Positions 5,754 through 41,977 of a DNA stretch of 53,558 nucleotides are shown piece after piece (within the stretch, counting starts at the first letter, position 1; every line of letters begins with the position of its first letter). Below the pieces are notes generated by a model. That model did not search any database and was not told the DNA's origin. It saw only the letters and a list, made by a program, of their open reading frames with translations. The DNA lies in contig JABXKD010000014.1 of assembly GCA_013375475.1 (NCBI GenBank), positions 1 to 53,558 on the forward strand, given 5' to 3'. A program made the position numbers and the translations under genes. Origin of the DNA: Promethearchaeota archaeon (GTDB taxonomy: Archaea; Asgardarchaeota; Lokiarchaeia; Sigyniarchaeales; SOKP01).

Positions 5754-7784
5754 ATGTCAAAAAAATCTAAAACAATAATTGCAATTCTTTTATTAGTAAT
5801 AGGTGGTGGCCTAATCCCAACTGGCATGATATTAAACGACACCATGCGATCTGAAGTCTATGATGGAGTTCCTGATGCTTTATTAGGTATTAGAGCACAA
5901 GCAATCCCTACCATAGAGGAAACAATACCAATCTTAGGAACCCCAGAAGTGCTTAAAGGAATTTTTGATGAAGCCTCTGCAGGTGTAGAACCGCTGTTAA
6001 AAGTAAAGTCAACACCTGACTCGCTCTTGGGTCTAAAAGCTAATATTAATGCATCTATTCCTGATTTAATAAACTTCGCAACAACGGCGCAACTTATTGC
6101 GACTTCCTTTGACTGGATGAATACTACCTACGGCTTCGATGTTGGAACTGACATATTCTTTAACGATCCGACTTTCGTTGACCCCTTTACAGGATTACTT
6201 GGCGTTTCTAATATGACAGGAGTTTCTCAAGGTTATACTTTAGCTGCTCGAACAAATCTACTACTCAATACTATACACGATGATTATATTGATCCCTTCG
6301 ATTTTCACGGTCTTATTACAGATCTTACTACAGGAAGTGGAGTAGGGGAGATTTATAATATCTTTTATTATATGGGGATATTAGGTGGTGATGTTTACAC
6401 AAATGTCGCACTCCCAGCAGCGTACAATATTACATTAGCTCAGGTAACCGATATATTTAACTATTTATGGACCATTATTACCTACTATGTTCCAGGCGCA
6501 TTCTCATATGCTTATGGCATTTCCACAGCTGAAGCAGCAGCAACGGGGTTTTACAGGCAATGGGCAAACGGTACTTTTGTTCCAGATGGAATTAATATAG
6601 GTGGAGGTTTAAAGGGTTTTGAAGTTGGAGTTCCAGAACCTACAAATATATCAGTCTCTACTTGCATAGATTTATGGAATCCTCTGCTTCCTTATACGTT
6701 TGTAACTGAAGCAGGATTAATGGCGTGGCTTGGAGCTGCAGCTGGTGATACCGGGCTCCAAACTCTTTTAATGTCGACTTTTAGCCTAACACCGACTCAA
6801 TTAAACATGTTACTAACATGGCTAGGGAATTTTATAGAGAATATCACTCCCGCACTTGTTTTAGGGAGTACTGGAAAGACTGTTAGTGAGCTCGCAACAT
6901 TAGCGTTCTTTGAACAATGGGCTAACGGTACAATCTTTGGTGAAGTGGTTCTCCCAGACGGATTTTTAGGTGAAGTTACATCCTCTTGGGCAGGAGCACC
7001 ATACTTTGAAGTAGGTTTACCAACTGCGAGTGGCCTTTCACTTTATGAATGTATAAGTCTTTGGAATCCCTTGGGCGATAAAACATTTATATACGGTGAG
7101 AGTTTTGAAAACTTATGGCTTCCTGCAATGCAGGGTAATTCAACGAGTCAAGGTACACTAATCGCAATCTTTGGAATTAGTCCTGGGGAATTAACAGCAA
7201 TTTTGACATGGATTGGTAGTTTAATTGGTCTAGATCCAACAGCGGGTCGCATTGCAGATATCATCGAATACAATACTGGTTTTACTGTACTCCAAATTGC
7301 CACATCATATTTCTATGACCAATGGGCTAATGGAACGGTGGAAGGGGAAGATTTTCTACCTGAAGGCTTCCTAAGTCAGCTAGATCCTCCAATTGAAGGT
7401 CCACCATACTTTGAAGTCGGTTTGTTTTATCCTACAGGGATTACTATTGCGCAAACTCTAGCACTTTGGGACGAAACTAGTGAGTATTCTTTAGTTACTG
7501 AGAGCGGTATTTACAAATGGTATCAAGCAGTTGAAGGAAATTTAAATTACACTACTCTAAAAGAACAAAATGGCGATTTAAGCGACCTACAAATGACTGG
7601 ACTTTTAGCATGGTTACCACAATTTAGAGATGTCATCGTCAATAAACTCGCAAAAGCTGATATGGGTCTGCCTCAAGAGCCTTATGAATTAGGACAAACG
7701 TTAGCTCTCAGCTTAGGCATAGCAGGAGGAATTCTCGCAGCCTTAGGTGTAATAGTGCTCTTATTAGCTAGAAGGTCATTCTGA
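5754..7784 (+). CDS. Membrane protein with N- and C-terminal TM helices and 3 (plus 1 degenerate) QWANGT repeats; possible CD36/LIMP-II-insert relative
   Basis: N-terminal KKSK + hydrophobic helix; C-terminal helix + RRSF; repeats FxxQWANGT...FEVG...LW at about 6558, 6915 and 7320; many NxS/T sequons. Confidence 0.75.
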   Translation: MSKKSKTIIAILLLVIGGGLIPTGMILNDTMRSEVYDGVPDALLGIRAQAIPTIEETIPILGTPEVLKGIFDEASAGVEPLLKVKSTPDSLLGLKANINASIPDLINFATTAQLIATSFDWMNTTYGFDVGTDIFFNDPTFVDPFTGLLGVSNMTGVSQGYTLAARTNLLLNTIHDDYIDPFDFHGLITDLTTGSGVGEIYNIFYYMGILGGDVYTNVALPAAYNITLAQVTDIFNYLWTIITYYVPGAFSYAYGISTAEAAATGFYRQWANGTFVPDGINIGGGLKGFEVGVPEPTNISVSTCIDLWNPLLPYTFVTEAGLMAWLGAAAGDTGLQTLLMSTFSLTPTQLNMLLTWLGNFIENITPALVLGSTGKTVSELATLAFFEQWANGTIFGEVVLPDGFLGEVTSSWAGAPYFEVGLPTASGLSLYECISLWNPLGDKTFIYGESFENLWLPAMQGNSTSQGTLIAIFGISPGELTAILTWIGSLIGLDPTAGRIADIIEYNTGFTVLQIATSYFYDQWANGTVEGEDFLPEGFLSQLDPPIEGPPYFEVGLFYPTGITIAQTLALWDETSEYSLVTESGIYKWYQAVEGNLNYTTLKEQNGDLSDLQMTGLLAWLPQFRDVIVNKLAKADMGLPQEPYELGQTLALSLGIAGGILAALGVIVLLLARRSF

Positions 7785-12753: not shown

Positions 12754-13683
12754 ATGGTAGATTATAAGGTATCAGATTTTATCGATGATTTTCTAATTTC
12801 AAAGGAAGTTGAGGAGGGATGTGCGCCCTCAACTATTAAAGCGTATCGATACGATCTTGAAAAATTTATAAGCCTTGTAGGAGACTTAGCTCTTGAGTCT
12901 CCAATGGTGCGTCAGAGAGTTAGATTATTTTTAAAGCAGCTGAAGGATTTAGGATATACTAAAAAAGGTGTAAGCCGAAAAATAGCCACCTTGAGATCTT
13001 ATTTTAAGTTTTTGACACTCAATGAATTTATAACTAAAAACCCTATGAGCACAATAAAATCTCCCAAAATAAAATTAGAAGAAAGTCTTCCCAAATTTCT
13101 TGATATTTCTGATATCGAAGTAATTTTTAATAAGTTAAAAGACCGAAAATTGTTTAACTCCAGGAAGAGTCAAAGATATTATTTAATTGTAAGGCTCCTT
13201 TATTCTACTATGGCTCGTGTAAGCGAATTGTGCGATATTAGGATAAGAGATATTGATTTTAACAAAGGCTACATAAGACTAAAGGGTAAAGGAAGCAAAG
13301 AAAGAATTGTGCCCGTTGATTATAATACATTAAATCTTTTTAACGAATATCTAGGTAATCGAATATCGTACAGTACTGAGGATTATCTCTTGGTAAACAC
13401 AAGAAATCAAAAATTAAATCCGCGTGTAGTCCAGGCAGATATAAAATCAATAAAGGAGAAGTGTGGTTTCCCCGTTTCTAAAATTATAACGCCTCATGTA
13501 TTTAGGCATACTGGAGCTACGCATCTTAGAAGGTCGGGAATGGATATTAGTGAATTACAGGATATTTTAGGGCACAGCTCTCCAAATACAACTCGTATCT
13601 ACGCCAAGAATGATATAACCAAGTTAAGACAGTCTTATTCTGTGATGCATCCATTAAATAATGATAACTTAAAACTGCGGTAA
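12754..13683 (+). CDS. xerA: XerA/XerC-D family tyrosine recombinase
   Basis: N-terminal SAM-like domain (STIKAYRYDL, LRSYFKFL); catalytic R (ARVSEL), K (GKGSKER), HxxR (TPHVFRH), LGH, Y (TRIY). Confidence 0.88.
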   Translation: MVDYKVSDFIDDFLISKEVEEGCAPSTIKAYRYDLEKFISLVGDLALESPMVRQRVRLFLKQLKDLGYTKKGVSRKIATLRSYFKFLTLNEFITKNPMSTIKSPKIKLEESLPKFLDISDIEVIFNKLKDRKLFNSRKSQRYYLIVRLLYSTMARVSELCDIRIRDIDFNKGYIRLKGKGSKERIVPVDYNTLNLFNEYLGNRISYSTEDYLLVNTRNQKLNPRVVQADIKSIKEKCGFPVSKIITPHVFRHTGATHLRRSGMDISELQDILGHSSPNTTRIYAKNDITKLRQSYSVMHPLNNDNLKLR

Positions 13684-13831
13684 GTAATTAATTATAAAAC
13701 TTTTATAACATCTTAAGTCAATTATCTATTAATATTCTAGTAAAAAGTTTAAAGTATAAGAAAGTTTAAACTTAATTTGTTCTATAATTACTTATATATC
13801 ACTAAAAATTTCAATTAGGAGCAAGCCAATC

Positions 13832-15025
13832 ATGGACGAAGATGATTTTAGAAAGCCTTTCATGCAAAAGTCAGTTTTTAAGCAAGCCAGCTCGCTTGAT
13901 ATGAGCTATTTACCCGATAAATTGTATTGTCGCGATGAAGCAATAAAAACCTTAATTTTCAACTTTAGAAGGATTCTTGATGAAGAAGAGCAACCTTCGA
14001 TCAACTGCTTAATTTTGGGAAAAGGAGGAGTTGGAAAAACTTGTACCGCGAGATGGTTTGGTAAAAATTTCAAAAATGTTGCCTTGGAAAAAGATGTTTA
14101 CTTGTTTACAGAGTATTATAATTGCATAAATTTTCGCTCAAAAAGTAAGATAATACGTGAACTTTTAGCCAAGCATACACACGGAAGTGGTAGGGGCTTT
14201 TCAGATGACGAAGCACTCAAACTAATTCTGAAACAGTTAATTAGAGAAAAGACCTATATGTTGTTAGTTATCGACGAAGTTCATCTATTAAAACCAGATG
14301 AGATTTTAGCTCTTTTAGATATAGCTGAAACGTACGGTCATCAGAACGCAAAGCTATCAATAATACTAATCTCCAGAAACAAAGATTGGATGAGAATTGA
14401 AACTGAAAGAATTTTAAGTAGATTAAACGAGAAGATTAAGCTTAAACCTTATAAGTACGAAGAATCAAAACAAATTTTGGAATATAGAAGCGAGCTCGCT
14501 TTTAAAGAGTATGTTGTAGATGATGATATTCTAAATATGGTTGGCCAGATTGTTACTGATCATCAAGATATGCGTCACGGAATCGAGATTTTAAGAAAAA
14601 GTGGTCTATACGCTGACAAAGAAGGATTAGATCGGATAAATGCAGACATTATTAGAGGGGCTTCAAATGACGTGTATCCCACATTTAGAGCAGAGATCGT
14701 GGATCAACTTAACGATCAAGAACTTTTTGCATTATTTGGAATTGCTAGATCCTTAATAAATAAAGACGAACCTTTTACATTGGTTGACGAAGCTTTTGAA
14801 GAGTATCAGATAATTAGCGAGACATATTCAGTAGAACCTCACGTTAAAATGAGCTTTCGAAAATATATACGAACGCTTAACCAGTTAAAGATTATCGCGT
14901 CGAAAACTGTCAGAATCGAAGAGGCAGAGAGAGGAAGACATTTAGAAATTACACTATTAGATATCCCCGCTGGCAAATTGGAAGAATTTTTAATTGAGAT
15001 TTTCAATAAAAAATTCGGTTCATAA
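13832..15025 (+). CDS. cdc6: Orc1/Cdc6 replication initiator
   Basis: YLPDKLYCRD, Walker A GKGGVGKT, YNC, Walker B LLVIDEVH, RILSRL, PY...IL.YR, C-terminal wHTH. Confidence 0.92.
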   Translation: MDEDDFRKPFMQKSVFKQASSLDMSYLPDKLYCRDEAIKTLIFNFRRILDEEEQPSINCLILGKGGVGKTCTARWFGKNFKNVALEKDVYLFTEYYNCINFRSKSKIIRELLAKHTHGSGRGFSDDEALKLILKQLIREKTYMLLVIDEVHLLKPDEILALLDIAETYGHQNAKLSIILISRNKDWMRIETERILSRLNEKIKLKPYKYEESKQILEYRSELAFKEYVVDDDILNMVGQIVTDHQDMRHGIEILRKSGLYADKEGLDRINADIIRGASNDVYPTFRAEIVDQLNDQELFALFGIARSLINKDEPFTLVDEAFEEYQIISETYSVEPHVKMSFRKYIRTLNQLKIIASKTVRIEEAERGRHLEITLLDIPAGKLEEFLIEIFNKKFGS

Positions 15026-15175: not shown

Positions 15176-16168
15176 ATGGAAAAAAAGAAAGTTTTATTAA
15201 CTGGAGCTTCTGGCACAGTTGGTAAAGAAGTATTTAAAGAATTGTTAAAGAGGACCAATCATTACGAGATTAGTTTATTTCTAAGAGGATCGCGTAAGAA
15301 TAAAAAGCTATTCAAGCGATACATGGACAAAATTAGGATTTATTGGGGGAATATACAGAATTTTGAAGAAGTCAAAGAAGCTGTGAATGAGCAAGATGTT
15401 GTTATCCATGTAGCAGGTGCTTTAGCAGATGTAGCATTTAAAAATCCTGAAGTTGTAGTTTCCACAAATGTAGACGGTACTCAAAATGTAATAAATGGTA
15501 TGGAAAACCAGATAAATCCTCCCAAACTTATCTTTACCTCCTCCGTTGTCGTTTATGGTGATCGACGGGAAAACCCCACCATTAAACTATCTGACCCAAT
15601 AGATGAAGATACGAAAGATCTATATGCCGCTACTAAAATTAAAGCTGAAAGCCTAATTAAAGAATCTAATCTTGAGTATTGCATTTTTAGAGTTACTTTT
15701 GTTGTCGCGACAGAAGTATTGAAATTCAGACCGATTATGTTCTATATTTCTCTAGAAACAAGTGTAGAGGCTATCCACTCTAAAGATGTTGGGTTAGCTT
15801 TAGTTAATGCCATAGATTCGAAAGAGGCATGGAACAATACTTTCAACTTGGGGGGAGGAAAACAATGTCAAATGTCATATCGAGATAATATGGACAATAT
15901 TTTTGAAATTATGAGCTTTGGAAGAGGATTCTTGCCTGATGAAGCCTTTTCAAAAGAAGATTCTCATTGCGGTTTCTTTGACGAGCAAGAAACAAGCTAC
16001 ATTCAGAGCATTTTAAGGTTTCAGAATTTCACTTTAGAGGATTTCTATAAAGAAGTTAAAAAGTGGATTGGGATAAAGAGATATTTGATTCCACTAGTAA
16101 AACCAATTCTACGATGGTTTATTCTCCGGAAATCTGAATTTTATCAAGACTTTAAAAACAAGAATTAA
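15176..16168 (+). CDS. Extended SDR, NAD-dependent epimerase / 3-beta-hydroxysteroid dehydrogenase-like
   Basis: TGASGTVG, VIHVAG, TNVDGT, TSSVVVYG, YxxxK (YAATK). Confidence 0.85.
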   Translation: MEKKKVLLTGASGTVGKEVFKELLKRTNHYEISLFLRGSRKNKKLFKRYMDKIRIYWGNIQNFEEVKEAVNEQDVVIHVAGALADVAFKNPEVVVSTNVDGTQNVINGMENQINPPKLIFTSSVVVYGDRRENPTIKLSDPIDEDTKDLYAATKIKAESLIKESNLEYCIFRVTFVVATEVLKFRPIMFYISLETSVEAIHSKDVGLALVNAIDSKEAWNNTFNLGGGKQCQMSYRDNMDNIFEIMSFGRGFLPDEAFSKEDSHCGFFDEQETSYIQSILRFQNFTLEDFYKEVKKWIGIKRYLIPLVKPILRWFILRKSEFYQDFKNKN

Positions 16169-16194: not shown

Positions 16195-16953
16195 TTAATA
16201 TACTAGTGGAATTAACGCTCTTCTGTTTTTAGGGTAATCCGGGAAAGTTTCAAGATACCATTTATGATGAGAAAGCGCTCGAGGTGCTAAATTGGCAAAT
16301 GTCCAAGCAACAAATACTAATCCTGGAAAGGACCAGGTTAATATTGCCCATCCCACCCACTCCGTAATCTCTCCAAAATAACTCGGACTACTCACCCACC
16401 TGAACATACCTCCATAAGGTATTTTATACTCAGTCTCTCCGGGTTTGCGTAATCTTCGAATAATGTTATCTGAATGAAGATTGATTATTATACCAATTAT
16501 AAAAATGCTCGCTCCAATTATAAAGAAAGGAGAAAAAATCCATTCGTTCGGATAAAGTGCTGATAAAGTATAAATCCAGCGAGCTTGTAAATAAGTATTA
16601 ATCCCGTTGAAAATAAATCCAAAAGATATGATTGTCAATGGCATTGGTTCTTTTCCTCGAATTAAGAAAGGAAAGATAAATGTTCGTTGCCCATAATGGA
16701 CCATCCATATGATTAAAAAGAATATAGAGATAATACTCGTTGTTCTTCCTCCTATAAAATATAAAATAAGAAAAATTACAACAGTGGGAATTTCCATTAA
16801 AAACCAACCCAGTTTATTATTAATGTTTGGCCCCCACCCTTTCCTAATATGTTGGCCATAAGGGGCTGATATAAAAAAAAGAAGAATAAAAACGCCAGCT
16901 CCTAGGATACCAAAGAATATCATAATAAAATTGAAAATTGCAATTTCACTCAT
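16195..16953 (-). CDS. Steroid 5-alpha-reductase family protein (SRD5A1/2, DET2-like)
   Basis: APYG, GWFLME, HYGQR, HSD..LRKPGETEYKIPYGGMF, YFGEITEW, NLAPRALSHHKWY, DYPKNRRALIP; multiple TMs. Confidence 0.92.
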   Translation of the reverse strand: MSEIAIFNFIMIFFGILGAGVFILLFFISAPYGQHIRKGWGPNINNKLGWFLMEIPTVVIFLILYFIGGRTTSIISIFFLIIWMVHYGQRTFIFPFLIRGKEPMPLTIISFGFIFNGINTYLQARWIYTLSALYPNEWIFSPFFIIGASIFIIGIIINLHSDNIIRRLRKPGETEYKIPYGGMFRWVSSPSYFGEITEWVGWAILTWSFPGLVFVAWTFANLAPRALSHHKWYLETFPDYPKNRRALIPLVY

Positions 16954-23421: not shown

Positions 23422-24300
23422 TTATTTATCTTTATTGTTCTCTTCTAAAAACGAAATTCTTGTTTCTAAAATGCTCATTGTCTCAATAATATTATTTATC
23501 GTATTCTGAATTTCCTTTACTCCATTTTGGAGTTCGCCCATTTGATCTAAAATAAATGACATAACATCTGGTCTTTTTACAGGTTCAGTTAACCAATTAA
23601 GAACATTTTGTAAAAATTTTTGATTGTCTAGTGAATTAATTCCTATATTATCATCACTGCAGAAAATATCAATATCACCGAGAGCAATTACTTTTCCTTG
23701 TCCAAAATTTGAATATGCAGCAATAATTTGTTGTTGTTCTTTATCTTTTGTCCATTCTTCAAATGTATTGTTGTAAATTTCTGACCAAATGTTATTTTCA
23801 TCCGTTAGTAATAGAGGTTTTGCCCCTTTTTTTAAGAAAAGAGAACAAGCACCTCCAATTATTACTTCTCTTAACCCATTTACGATTTCATGACGCGGGA
23901 ATTTTTGAATATGAAGAATACTAGAACAGTTTTGATTATGTGAATTTTGTTCTTTAATTAAATTCTTCTCAAAAAAAAAACCAAAATTCGTAGCTAAATC
24001 GTTTAGATTTGTTTTTTGAAGGAAATCTGCTCCGTATTCGCTGACGAGTATTAAATTTCCCCCTATTCTTACGTAATCAACAATATCCTTTATCTCGATA
24101 TTTGAGAAATAGTCGTCAATCGGGTTTCCCAATACTAAAACATCAACATTTTCTAAAAGTTTTTTAGTTAAATCCTTATTTTCATTTTTTATAATATTAA
24201 GATTGAGATTTTTAAGGAGTTTTAAAAATTCAGAAAATTCGTCGTCTAATGTCAACATCTCGCCATGAGAAAGATCGATAAGTATAACCTTACTTTGCAT
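23422..24300 (-). CDS. GIFT (GldG/IFT52, DUF4350-like) domain protein with C-terminal coiled coil
   Basis: ILIDLSHGE, DVLVLGNP..FS..EI..I.DYV..GGNL, TNLN.L...FG, GQGKVIALGD.DIF, DNQKFLQNVLNWL; no signal peptide. Confidence 0.75.
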   Translation of the reverse strand: MQSKVILIDLSHGEMLTLDDEFSEFLKLLKNLNLNIIKNENKDLTKKLLENVDVLVLGNPIDDYFSNIEIKDIVDYVRIGGNLILVSEYGADFLQKTNLNDLATNFGFFFEKNLIKEQNSHNQNCSSILHIQKFPRHEIVNGLREVIIGGACSLFLKKGAKPLLLTDENNIWSEIYNNTFEEWTKDKEQQQIIAAYSNFGQGKVIALGDIDIFCSDDNIGINSLDNQKFLQNVLNWLTEPVKRPDVMSFILDQMGELQNGVKEIQNTINNIIETMSILETRISFLEENNKDK

Positions 24301-39932: not shown

Positions 39933-40712
39933 ATGAATTGTCCGAATTGTGGGGATCCCGTTGATGGTGAATCCCAAAAATTCTGCGAAAAATGCGGCAC
40001 AGATTTACGATCAGTTAAACAAGCGGTTAAAAAGGATGAAAAAATTAGCTTAACCTCTCCTCCAAGTCAACATCCTATAGAAAACAGTGATCTTTTTGAT
40101 TTAAACAGAAACTATTACGTAATTAAAGAACGCATGTGGGATATGGGTTACGGCGATATTATGGATGAAGAAGGTAAACTTATTGGTCGTATGAATCGTA
40201 TATTATTTAGCATAAGAAGACGAGTGGAACTTCAAGAATTGGATGGCACTGTCGTTGCCACTATTCACAGTAAGATAGTTTCCGCGCGTGGTGCTCAAGA
40301 TTTAAAGACGCCAGACGGGGAACTAATAGCTAGAATCAAAAAGAAAATACTAACCTTCTTTAAATCTAAGTTTTATTTGGAAGACCCGCTCGGTACGCGT
40401 TGGTTTGAAGCCGACGGAGACTTTTTTGGCTGGTCGTTTAAAATCTACGATTTAACTACGGGAAAATTAGTAGCAGAAATAGATAAAGCTGATCGGTGGA
40501 GAGATGTCTTCCTCGGGGGAATTTTTGACTTTGCTGATAGATATGCTCTAAGAATTTTAGATAATGAAACTGACAGAAGGATTTTATTAGGTTTTGTTTT
40601 GTCTATTGATAATGTGATGCACGATGCTAGCGGTGGCAGGGGAATGATGGGCGTTCCTTTTGGTCGTGGAAGACGTCCTGGTCCATTTGGAGTTCTTGGT
40701 CGTCGAATGTGA
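39933..40712 (+). CDS. Zinc ribbon + LURP-one/scramblase (Tubby C-like) domain protein
   Basis: CPNCG..FCEKCG; repeated I.DE.G..IG units, GDFFGWSF.I, D.YAL.I, C-terminal helix LLGFVLSID. Confidence 0.8.
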   Translation: MNCPNCGDPVDGESQKFCEKCGTDLRSVKQAVKKDEKISLTSPPSQHPIENSDLFDLNRNYYVIKERMWDMGYGDIMDEEGKLIGRMNRILFSIRRRVELQELDGTVVATIHSKIVSARGAQDLKTPDGELIARIKKKILTFFKSKFYLEDPLGTRWFEADGDFFGWSFKIYDLTTGKLVAEIDKADRWRDVFLGGIFDFADRYALRILDNETDRRILLGFVLSIDNVMHDASGGRGMMGVPFGRGRRPGPFGVLGRRM

Positions 40713-41437: not shown

Positions 41438-41977
41438 ATGTCACTTCAAAAAACACGTGAGTTCATGTTAAATGAAAAAATGATTTCTTTAACAGATAAA
41501 GGTGAAATCAAGAACTTAGAGGGCGAGTTACTTGGCACATTTCGTGGAAATTTAATTAAGATTGGTAATACCTACCGTATAAGAGATCTTAACGATGTTC
41601 CCATATTAACGATTCATGAAAAGATAATCTCTCTTCGCTCAACTTATACATTTTATAGAGGTGGAGAGCAAGAGGACGATAAATTCATTGGGAAACTGAA
41701 ACAAAAAATTGTGGCATTTCCAGCTAAATATTGGTTTGAGGATCCTAATGAGAATAAAGTTTTCACGATGAAAGGAAATGTCATGACGCTTAAATTCAGG
41801 ATTTTTAAAGATGGCCAGGAAGTTGCCGAAATACGAAAAAAATTATGGAAAAGTCTTTTAAAGAATACATTTGGAATAAAAATGTCTCCAGACCTTGATG
41901 ACGATTCCGCAATGCTCATTCTTGGTATAGTCATTATGCTCCACCACGAAAAAGAGGAAAATCGGAAAAGACATTAA
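41438..41977 (+). CDS. LURP-one/scramblase family protein
   Basis: EKMISL, repeated hairpin units, MKGN..LKF.I.KDG..VAEI.KK, TFGI, C-terminal helix LILGIVIML. Confidence 0.82.
   Translation: MSLQKTREFMLNEKMISLTDKGEIKNLEGELLGTFRGNLIKIGNTYRIRDLNDVPILTIHEKIISLRSTYTFYRGGEQEDDKFIGKLKQKIVAFPAKYWFEDPNENKVFTMKGNVMTLKFRIFKDGQEVAEIRKKLWKSLLKNTFGIKMSPDLDDDSAMLILGIVIMLHHEKEENRKRH

Follow-up and report, generated by a model that had tools for sequence, protein, structure and literature searches.

Here we examine P0001, a gene at positions 5754..7784 on the forward (+) strand of a 53,558-nucleotide stretch of archaeal DNA, which we call the window (contig JABXKD010000014.1, positions 1 to 53,558, of assembly GCA_013375475.1, from a Promethearchaeota archaeon of the order Sigyniarchaeales). 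We will show that its product is very probably a relative of the apex module of CD36-type receptors, from which the CD36 barrel itself is absent. The protein consists of two membrane helices and a helical ectodomain with three tandem repeats, and the same repeat is found in the apex inserts of CD36 proteins that do carry the barrel.

Results and Discussion

The word-index search with P0001 yields 117 homologues. Those that are named all come from Asgard metagenome-assembled genomes (Promethearchaeota, Lokiarchaeota, Thorarchaeota and Hermodarchaeota) and are annotated as 'hypothetical protein'. The weakest of the 117, P0117 (1033 residues), matches the CD36 family profile PF01130 with an E-value of 3.6e-82, and the profile is interrupted at about position 146. 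Residues 84-394 of P0001 are collinear with the apex insert located there (residues 206-512 of P0117), with 30% identity and an E-value of 3e-27. The stalk part of P0001 (84-129) aligns with residues 206-250 of P0117, and the domain that follows it, called R0, is likewise collinear with the insert. P0117 is in turn 90% identical to an open reading frame (ORF) of an Asgard genome of the same phylum as the window (G056), and it is therefore archaeal.

The resemblance extends to the membrane anchor. Residues 1-44 of P0001 are 45% identical, over 44 residues, to residues 25-68 of a CD36 protein from an Asgard archaeon of the same genus, and a local hidden Markov model (HMM) of the CD36 N-terminus aligns with positions 19-60 of some 40 members of the barrel-less family (E 1e-4 to 1e-7). 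Local HMMs of the two barrel halves match the barrel-less relatives in this N-terminal anchor segment only.

A preliminary description of the gene had proposed an insert-only relative of the CD36 family and had suggested a search for Asgard proteins that combine the repeat with the barrel. Such proteins exist. Twenty Asgard CD36-domain loci were fetched, and a local HMM of 368 repeat units matches the insert in all 20 of the ORFs with PF01130. Three of them contain the full unit (E 1e-22 to 1e-28), while the other 17 match about 75 C-terminal positions of the repeat (E 1e-10 to 1e-15). The end of the unit in CD36 proteins coincides with the point where the PF01130 match sets in again. In six of the eight ORFs for which this was computed, the second part of that match starts at profile position 123-126 and shares the last 24-37 residues of the unit. 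This overlap suggests that the long last helix of the unit stands where the apex helix is canonically found.

The insert-only character proposed for P0001 is upheld as well. Collinear as it is with a CD36 insert, the protein has no match at E<=10 in Pfam or NCBIfam, PF01130 included, and its structural model has no β-sheet domain. Its units can thus not be assigned to the apex position, i.e. to the break of the Pfam profile at about 123-156, as there is no barrel for them to sit on; the full-length unit of about 130 residues is nevertheless found three times. Without the barrel there is no intramolecular lipid tunnel, and P0001 cannot serve as a lipid conduit.

We now consider the architecture of the protein. 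The ORF starts with ATG and its translation has 676 residues. In a Kyte-Doolittle scan, hydrophobic 19-residue windows are found at residues 4-29 and 646-676 only, besides a marginal one at 469-487. The N-terminal membrane helix (residues ~7-27; 5772..5834, +) follows a lysine-rich cytoplasmic tail with three lysines, and the C-terminal one (residues ~650-672; 7701..7769, +) is followed by a short tail with two arginines. These charges fit a hairpin with both termini inside and the ectodomain outside. A helix at each end (3-37 and 643-674 in the model), short cytoplasmic tails and a large ectodomain are also the features of the CD36-type hairpin. The ectodomain contains every one of the 12 N-x-S/T sequons, compared with 4.4 expected from its composition. 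The hairpin and the sequon-rich ectodomain, both noted in the preliminary description, are thus borne out.

The ectodomain begins with a helical stalk (residues 28-129; 5835..6140, +), recognized from the AlphaFold2 model and from the sequence. Its units of about 24 residues are visible in the sequence of P0001 and are multiplied in longer relatives, for example P0019. After R0 (residues 130-254; 6141..6515, +) come repeat 1 (residues 255-373, 119 residues; 6516..6872, +), repeat 2 (residues 374-508, 135 residues; 6873..7277, +) and repeat 3 (residues 509-640, 132 residues; 7278..7673, +), which were found with BLASTP and match the repeat profile with E-values of 5.2e-41, 3.1e-35 and 7.2e-45, respectively. 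In pairwise BLASTP comparisons the three are 34-37% identical to each other (E 1.1e-24, 2.1e-21 and 3.5e-24), and their similarity is far beyond chance. The number of repeats and their lengths of 119-135 residues are as first described. Each repeat has a conserved sequon in the motif QWANGT (at residues 269, 388 and 523) together with conserved tryptophan and phenylalanine residues, and an N-x-S/T sequon at the QWAN-x-T place is retained in 346 of the 368 repeat units.

R0 had been taken for a degenerate upstream copy of the repeat, and here the outcome is divided. No significant BLASTP match is obtained between R0 and the repeats of P0001. In hhalign, the final 46 columns of R0 pair with the C-terminal helices of the repeat (P-value 4.6e-4, probability 33%). 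The identification of R0 as a possible repeat copy is only marginally supported by these sequence comparisons.

A whole-protein AlphaFold2 model was built from the 55 orthologues of alignment A1 (43-89% identity to P0001), in which 59 columns are invariant. The model is all-helical, with a mean pLDDT of 90.5. A single helix runs from the membrane to about residue 126, followed by helical bundles and the terminal helix 643-674. Repeat 1, modelled as a single repeat, gives five helices with a pLDDT of 94.4. Foldseek finds no match in the PDB at E<=1e-3 for either model. VIA-align of the whole model against 48,161 chains gives only helical hairpins that match the stalk and the anchors (top Z 9.0 over 71 residues, root-mean-square deviation (rmsd) 1.8), so that no fold can be assigned. 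For the single repeat, no chain reaches Z>=5; the best one (Z 4.4, 66 aligned residues, rmsd 2.8) consists of three homeodomain-like helices. The ESM Atlas gave no usable match. As modelled, the single repeat has no convincing relative among solved structures.

Next, we discuss the occurrence of the repeat outside the closest relatives of P0001. A profile of 41 units (alignment A2), run with HMMER over 1.84 billion representative proteins, matches 280 proteins at E<=1e-3, 160 at E<=1e-10 and 74 at E<=1e-30. Among the best 150 of the 280, from which the composition was taken, 31 have parts of the CD36 barrel and 119 do not; the remaining 130 (E ~1e-11 to 1e-3) may include further eukaryotes. 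All 24 profile matches that were scanned pass the PF01130 cut-off. Cluster look-ups place the repeat-bearing CD36 proteins in the oomycetes Thraustotheca clavata, Aphanomyces cochlioides (annotated 'scavenger receptor class B'), A. astaci and Pythium insidiosum, and in the amoebozoans Cavostelium apophysatum and Nematostelium gracile (Evosea, Variosea). They also list Asgard matches in genomes of Hodarchaeales and Kariarchaeaceae, and an entry from the transcriptome of the ciliate Muranothrix gubernata.

The oomycete proteins are 2200-2700 residues long and have up to 10 matched stretches each, mostly partial units (profile positions about 36-125). The Cavostelium unit covers profile positions 5-126 with 82.6 bits, the higher of the local repeat scores of the two amoebozoan proteins (82.6 and 59.4 bits). 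In BLASTP, the three repeats of P0001 match the Cavostelium CD36 protein with E-values of 8e-21, 3e-15 and 6e-11, and the best alignment to its insert has 30% identity over 184 residues (E 8e-21). A word-index search with the Cavostelium protein returned itself and one weak match only. Tryptophan, glutamine and glutamate positions are strictly conserved across Asgard archaea and eukaryotes, and the motif pattern of the Cavostelium unit agrees with the one that the preliminary description ascribes to the insert of Dictyostelium LmpA. The link to protist CD36 proteins suggested there therefore stands, and the search proposed for it, a profile made from the repeats and run against protein databases, recovers CD36-family inserts of Asgard archaea, Amoebozoa and oomycetes.

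The Muranothrix entry (P0287, 860 residues, EukProt; from an anaerobic ciliate) is a case of its own. It scores 216 bits with an HMM of the Asgard barrel, compared with 99-133 bits for the amoebozoan proteins, and it falls outside the Asgard clan in the barrel tree described below. The sequence may belong to the ciliate, or it may reflect contamination of the transcriptome.

Within the Asgard archaea, PF01130 was searched with its curated cut-off in 400 genomes of the window's phylum and in 14 control genomes. It is found in 28 of the 400, belonging to 10 of 85 genera, and in none of the controls. By family, in our labelling, the counts are 20/134 (f1), 1/1 (f12), 2/3 (f14), 4/12 (f15) and 1/2 (f17). 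The matches are split (profile positions ~3-170 and ~123/156-462) within single stop-free frames of 780-1370 residues. P0001 itself has matches in 89 of the 400 genomes (E<=1e-8). Six of these lie outside the window's order, in f14, f15 and f17 (G042, G043, G050, G051, G056 and G079), and in the five whose match was displayed (all but G050) it is inside the CD36 ORF itself. The barrel-less form is present in about 83 of the 400 genomes, namely in f1 (77/134 and the window's genome), f3 (4/14) and f4 (1/4). These three families make up the window's order, to which the barrel-less family is confined.

It is worth stressing that the window's own genome, for which markers indicate 100% completeness and 6.4% contamination, has no PF01130 match, and that according to the profile search P0001 is its only repeat gene. 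This speaks for independence of the module from the barrel. Many other genomes give several matches to P0001, up to 6 per genome, where one multi-repeat protein can account for several.

Some arrangements of the genes may be mentioned separately. At two of the 20 CD36-domain loci (L024, G208:C27; L032, G213:C246), a barrel-less two-repeat gene of 570 residues is the divergent neighbour of the CD36-domain gene. Two CD36-domain genes occur in one genome in G264, where they are in tandem (G264:C33:2974-8298), and in G274, where 15 kb of a single contig separate them (G274:C4:21474-41032).

The barrel sequences were compared in a tree of 46 rows, obtained by a quick search, with an arbitrary root and a thin and biased sampling of eukaryotes. 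The Asgard sequences form one clan (SH-aLRT support 91) with two subdivisions, one of Loki-type sequences (100) and the other of f14, f15, f17, Hodarchaeales and Kariarchaeaceae (95). Two further clans, both on long branches, comprise the oomycetes (100) and the Amoebozoa together with two unnamed proteins (98). Owing to the root and the sampling, this tree cannot separate inheritance from transfer. In a second tree of 57 rows, made of repeat units, 37 of the 38 barrel-less units fall together in a clan (81), which speaks for a single origin. The tree sorts repeats 1, 2 and 3 according to their place in the protein, which means that the three-repeat build is old within the P0001 subfamily.

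The closest known counterparts of P0001 are the Asgard CD36, or class B scavenger receptor (SR-B), proteins with apex inserts, for example P0117, the Hodarchaeales protein MHA2363615.1 (1628 residues) and the Kariarchaeaceae protein MHA2249150.1 (1648 residues), all annotated as 'hypothetical protein'. They have in common with P0001 the two-helix hairpin and an N-terminal anchor that is homologous to its own, and their stalk, R0 and repeat are collinear with its residues 84-394. However, their module is enclosed by a PF01130 barrel, matched with E-values as low as 1e-89, and as a rule they have a single unit, whole or split, compared with the three of P0001. The long-form protist SR-Bs (Cavostelium and Nematostelium; Aphanomyces, Thraustotheca and Pythium) have the same unit of about 130 residues, with its motif pattern, in the apex insert, but they are eukaryotic and barrel-bearing. 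Vertebrate LIMP-2 (SCARB2), CD36 and SR-B1 share the hairpin topology and a glycosylated ectodomain with P0001, but differ in having a barrel with a lipid tunnel and an apex of only three helices. In these three proteins the apex is the ligand-docking site.

This role of the apex is discussed by Boohar et al. 2023 (PMC10715195). That paper, whose set comprises 279 eukaryotic SR-Bs, describes apex 'sequence expansions' at α4-α5 in SR-Bs longer than 500 residues, including amoebozoan LmpA and proteins of the oomycete Phytophthora, and regards them as lineage-specific, independently originated and not homologous to any known domain; it makes no mention of archaea or prokaryotes. Dictyostelium discoideum LmpA (DdLIMP) is described by Karakesisoglou et al. 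1999 (PMC2148220) as a protein of 779 residues that is hydrophobic at both ends, has 19 sequons and contains 'several insertions' in the region from about residue 160 to residue 640. By this published description, the insertions have the same position as those of the Asgard and Variosea proteins, and LmpA differs from P0001 in having the CD36 barrel. The literature that we searched contains no publication on archaeal CD36 relatives.

On this basis, we consider it probable that P0001 is a hairpin-anchored surface glycoprotein of a Loki-type Asgard archaeon, a barrel-less offshoot of the CD36/SR-B family that displays apex modules for binding. Both ends would be cytoplasmic and the ectodomain would be outside. 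The protein would have kept the two anchors, the helical stalk and the apex module, in the form of one R0 and three tandem five-helix repeats of about 130 residues, and would present these modules in N-glycosylated form at the cell surface. The comparisons above establish the topology (from hydropathy), the repeats, the homology to CD36 apex inserts, the missing barrel, the confident all-helical model and the distribution, while we infer that the protein is surface-exposed and putatively N-glycosylated. In the most likely mechanism, the modules would attach to a ligand, to a partner cell or to a surface polymer, in analogy to CD36, LIMP-2 and SR-B1, where ligands dock at the apex.

Another gene of the window deserves mention at this point. 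The gene at 16195-16953 (-) belongs to the 3-oxo-5-alpha-steroid 4-dehydrogenase family (PF02544, E 1.9e-51) and adjoins a gene resembling NAD-dependent epimerases and 3-beta-hydroxysteroid dehydrogenases (15176-16168, +). The PF02544 family includes the polyprenol reductases of the dolichol pathway, and the gene could bear on N-glycosylation.

That P0001 is a binding or adhesion module rather than an inert coat is a tentative proposal, drawn from the analogy just given, and we put its chances a little below even. Were the family instead the main glycoprotein layer of Loki-type Asgard cells, as a glycocalyx or a substitute for an S-layer, the repeats would be thickness spacers without a specific ligand. 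The repeat number, which varies from 2 to 6 among the 119 barrel-less relatives, the variable number of stalk units, the several copies in many genomes (with match counts that multi-repeat proteins may inflate) and the wealth of sequons would all suit such a coat. So would the word depth of RNA-library contigs over 7076-7771, which exceeds that of the flanking genes, although this measure cannot rank genes. Known archaeal S-layer proteins are beta-rich and have a signal peptide and a single anchor. P0001 is unlike them in its all-helical fold and its two membrane helices, and it matches no S-layer family of Pfam or NCBIfam; the fold search gave helical hairpins only (Z<=9.0), and the missing fold match is itself compatible with a coat. 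The same module is moreover found on the ligand-binding apex of receptors, and the strict conservation of tryptophan, glutamine and glutamate across Asgard archaea and eukaryotes suggests a specific surface. A passive coat appears rather unlikely to us.

As to origin, one may ask if the module was a mobile extracellular domain that entered the CD36 apex, with P0001-type proteins as the original carriers and not as CD36 derivatives. It does work in tandem arrays without a barrel, and the CD36 proteins with long inserts have just one full unit; that barrel-less and CD36 units lie on different sides of the unit tree fits either direction. The homology, however, reaches past the repeat to the anchor and the juxtamembrane segment, and stalk and R0 are collinear with the insert. 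Furthermore, the barrel-less form is phyletically narrower, being restricted to the window's order, while barrel and module together span f1, f12, f14, f15, f17, Hodarchaeales, Kariarchaeaceae and eukaryotes. We regard this origin as quite improbable. Acquisition of the Asgard CD36 genes, and with them the barrel-less offshoot, from a eukaryote by horizontal transfer would make the family uninformative on eukaryote ancestry. It would agree with the patchy occurrence in Asgard archaea (28 of 400 genomes) and with the short Asgard branches, and the barrel tree, being unrooted, does not distinguish a nested from a sister position. On the other hand, a single Asgard clan with well-supported subclades is what old residence would produce, the genes are part of long archaeal contigs (on one of 271,561 bases, a P0001 orthologue accompanies a CD36 gene), and none of the sampled eukaryotes is close to the Asgard sequences. 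We judge transfer to be unlikely.

Several observations count against P0001 as a CD36 offshoot displaying binding modules. The short-form animal member that was compared, fish LIMP-2c, has no match to the repeat profile, and among the PDB sequences, CD36 and LIMP-2 included, the profile finds only a chance WD40 match (E 0.34). The evolutionary direction, which could be loss of the barrel or the entry of a free-standing module into CD36, is not proven, and the binding or adhesion function is one that we infer by analogy with the apex of the animal proteins. Expression is no more than hinted at by RNA-library contigs from four runs in two studies, which cover parts of the gene with 95-100% likeness (short contigs over 7076-7771); these libraries may contain DNA, and uncovered parts of the gene carry no meaning. 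The genomic setting does not help either. Neighbouring genes encode an acyl-CoA-synthetase-like protein, a thiolase, an NMO protein and a glycyl-radical enzyme, but an NMO or glycyl-radical gene is beside the homologue at none of 29 loci, within flanks of 1.5 kb, and one of the loci has a weak AMP-binding match beside the gene. We considered whether P0001 might form a lipid-uptake operon together with the genes for the acyl-CoA-synthetase-like protein, the thiolase and the NMO protein, and rejected this, as these neighbours are not conserved at the 29 loci. The neighbourhood therefore offers no functional clue and no support for a lipid pathway.

Other parts of the window contain features unrelated to P0001. 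Two genes, at 39933-40712 (+) and 41438-41977 (+), encode proteins that match the LURP-one-related family (LOR, PF04525; E 2e-11 and 4.5e-14), which is named after a plant protein group. A 292-residue protein encoded at 23422-24300 (-) has a match to the IFT52 GIFT domain (PF23355, E 1.1e-10, residues 5-111). The segment 33931-38936 has three large ORFs (455, 465 and 660 residues) without a Pfam match and lies in the part of the window with the lowest fraction of guanine and cytosine (0.28-0.31, compared with ~0.34-0.39 elsewhere). At 12754-15025 (+), a tyrosine recombinase gene (Phage_integrase, E 1.9e-39) is directly upstream of a Cdc6/Orc1-type gene; this may represent an element that has integrated there, or else an origin region.

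Conclusion

The repeat of P0001 defines a domain outside the coverage of Pfam. A profile derived from this gene joins the CD36 proteins of Asgard archaea, Hodarchaeales and Kariarchaeaceae among them, the long-form receptors of amoebozoans and oomycetes, and a barrel-less archaeal family, and the CD36-type receptor family is thereby tied to the archaeal relatives of eukaryotes. Two questions become testable, namely whether the receptor family was inherited from Asgard archaea and what the stand-alone apex module binds.

We finally advance, as a speculation with the balance somewhat against it, that the 'QWANGT' module of about 130 residues, an autonomous extracellular domain of ancient origin, is older than the eukaryotes and was already present on a CD36-type receptor of the Asgard lineage from which they were founded. 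The amoebozoan and oomycete expansions would be retained homologues of it, and the three-helix apex of animals would be a reduced remnant. If this is true, the amoebozoan and oomycete expansions are not independent inventions, contrary to the published view, and the barrel-less family shows the module working alone on the surface of an archaeal cell, perhaps in contact with partner cells.

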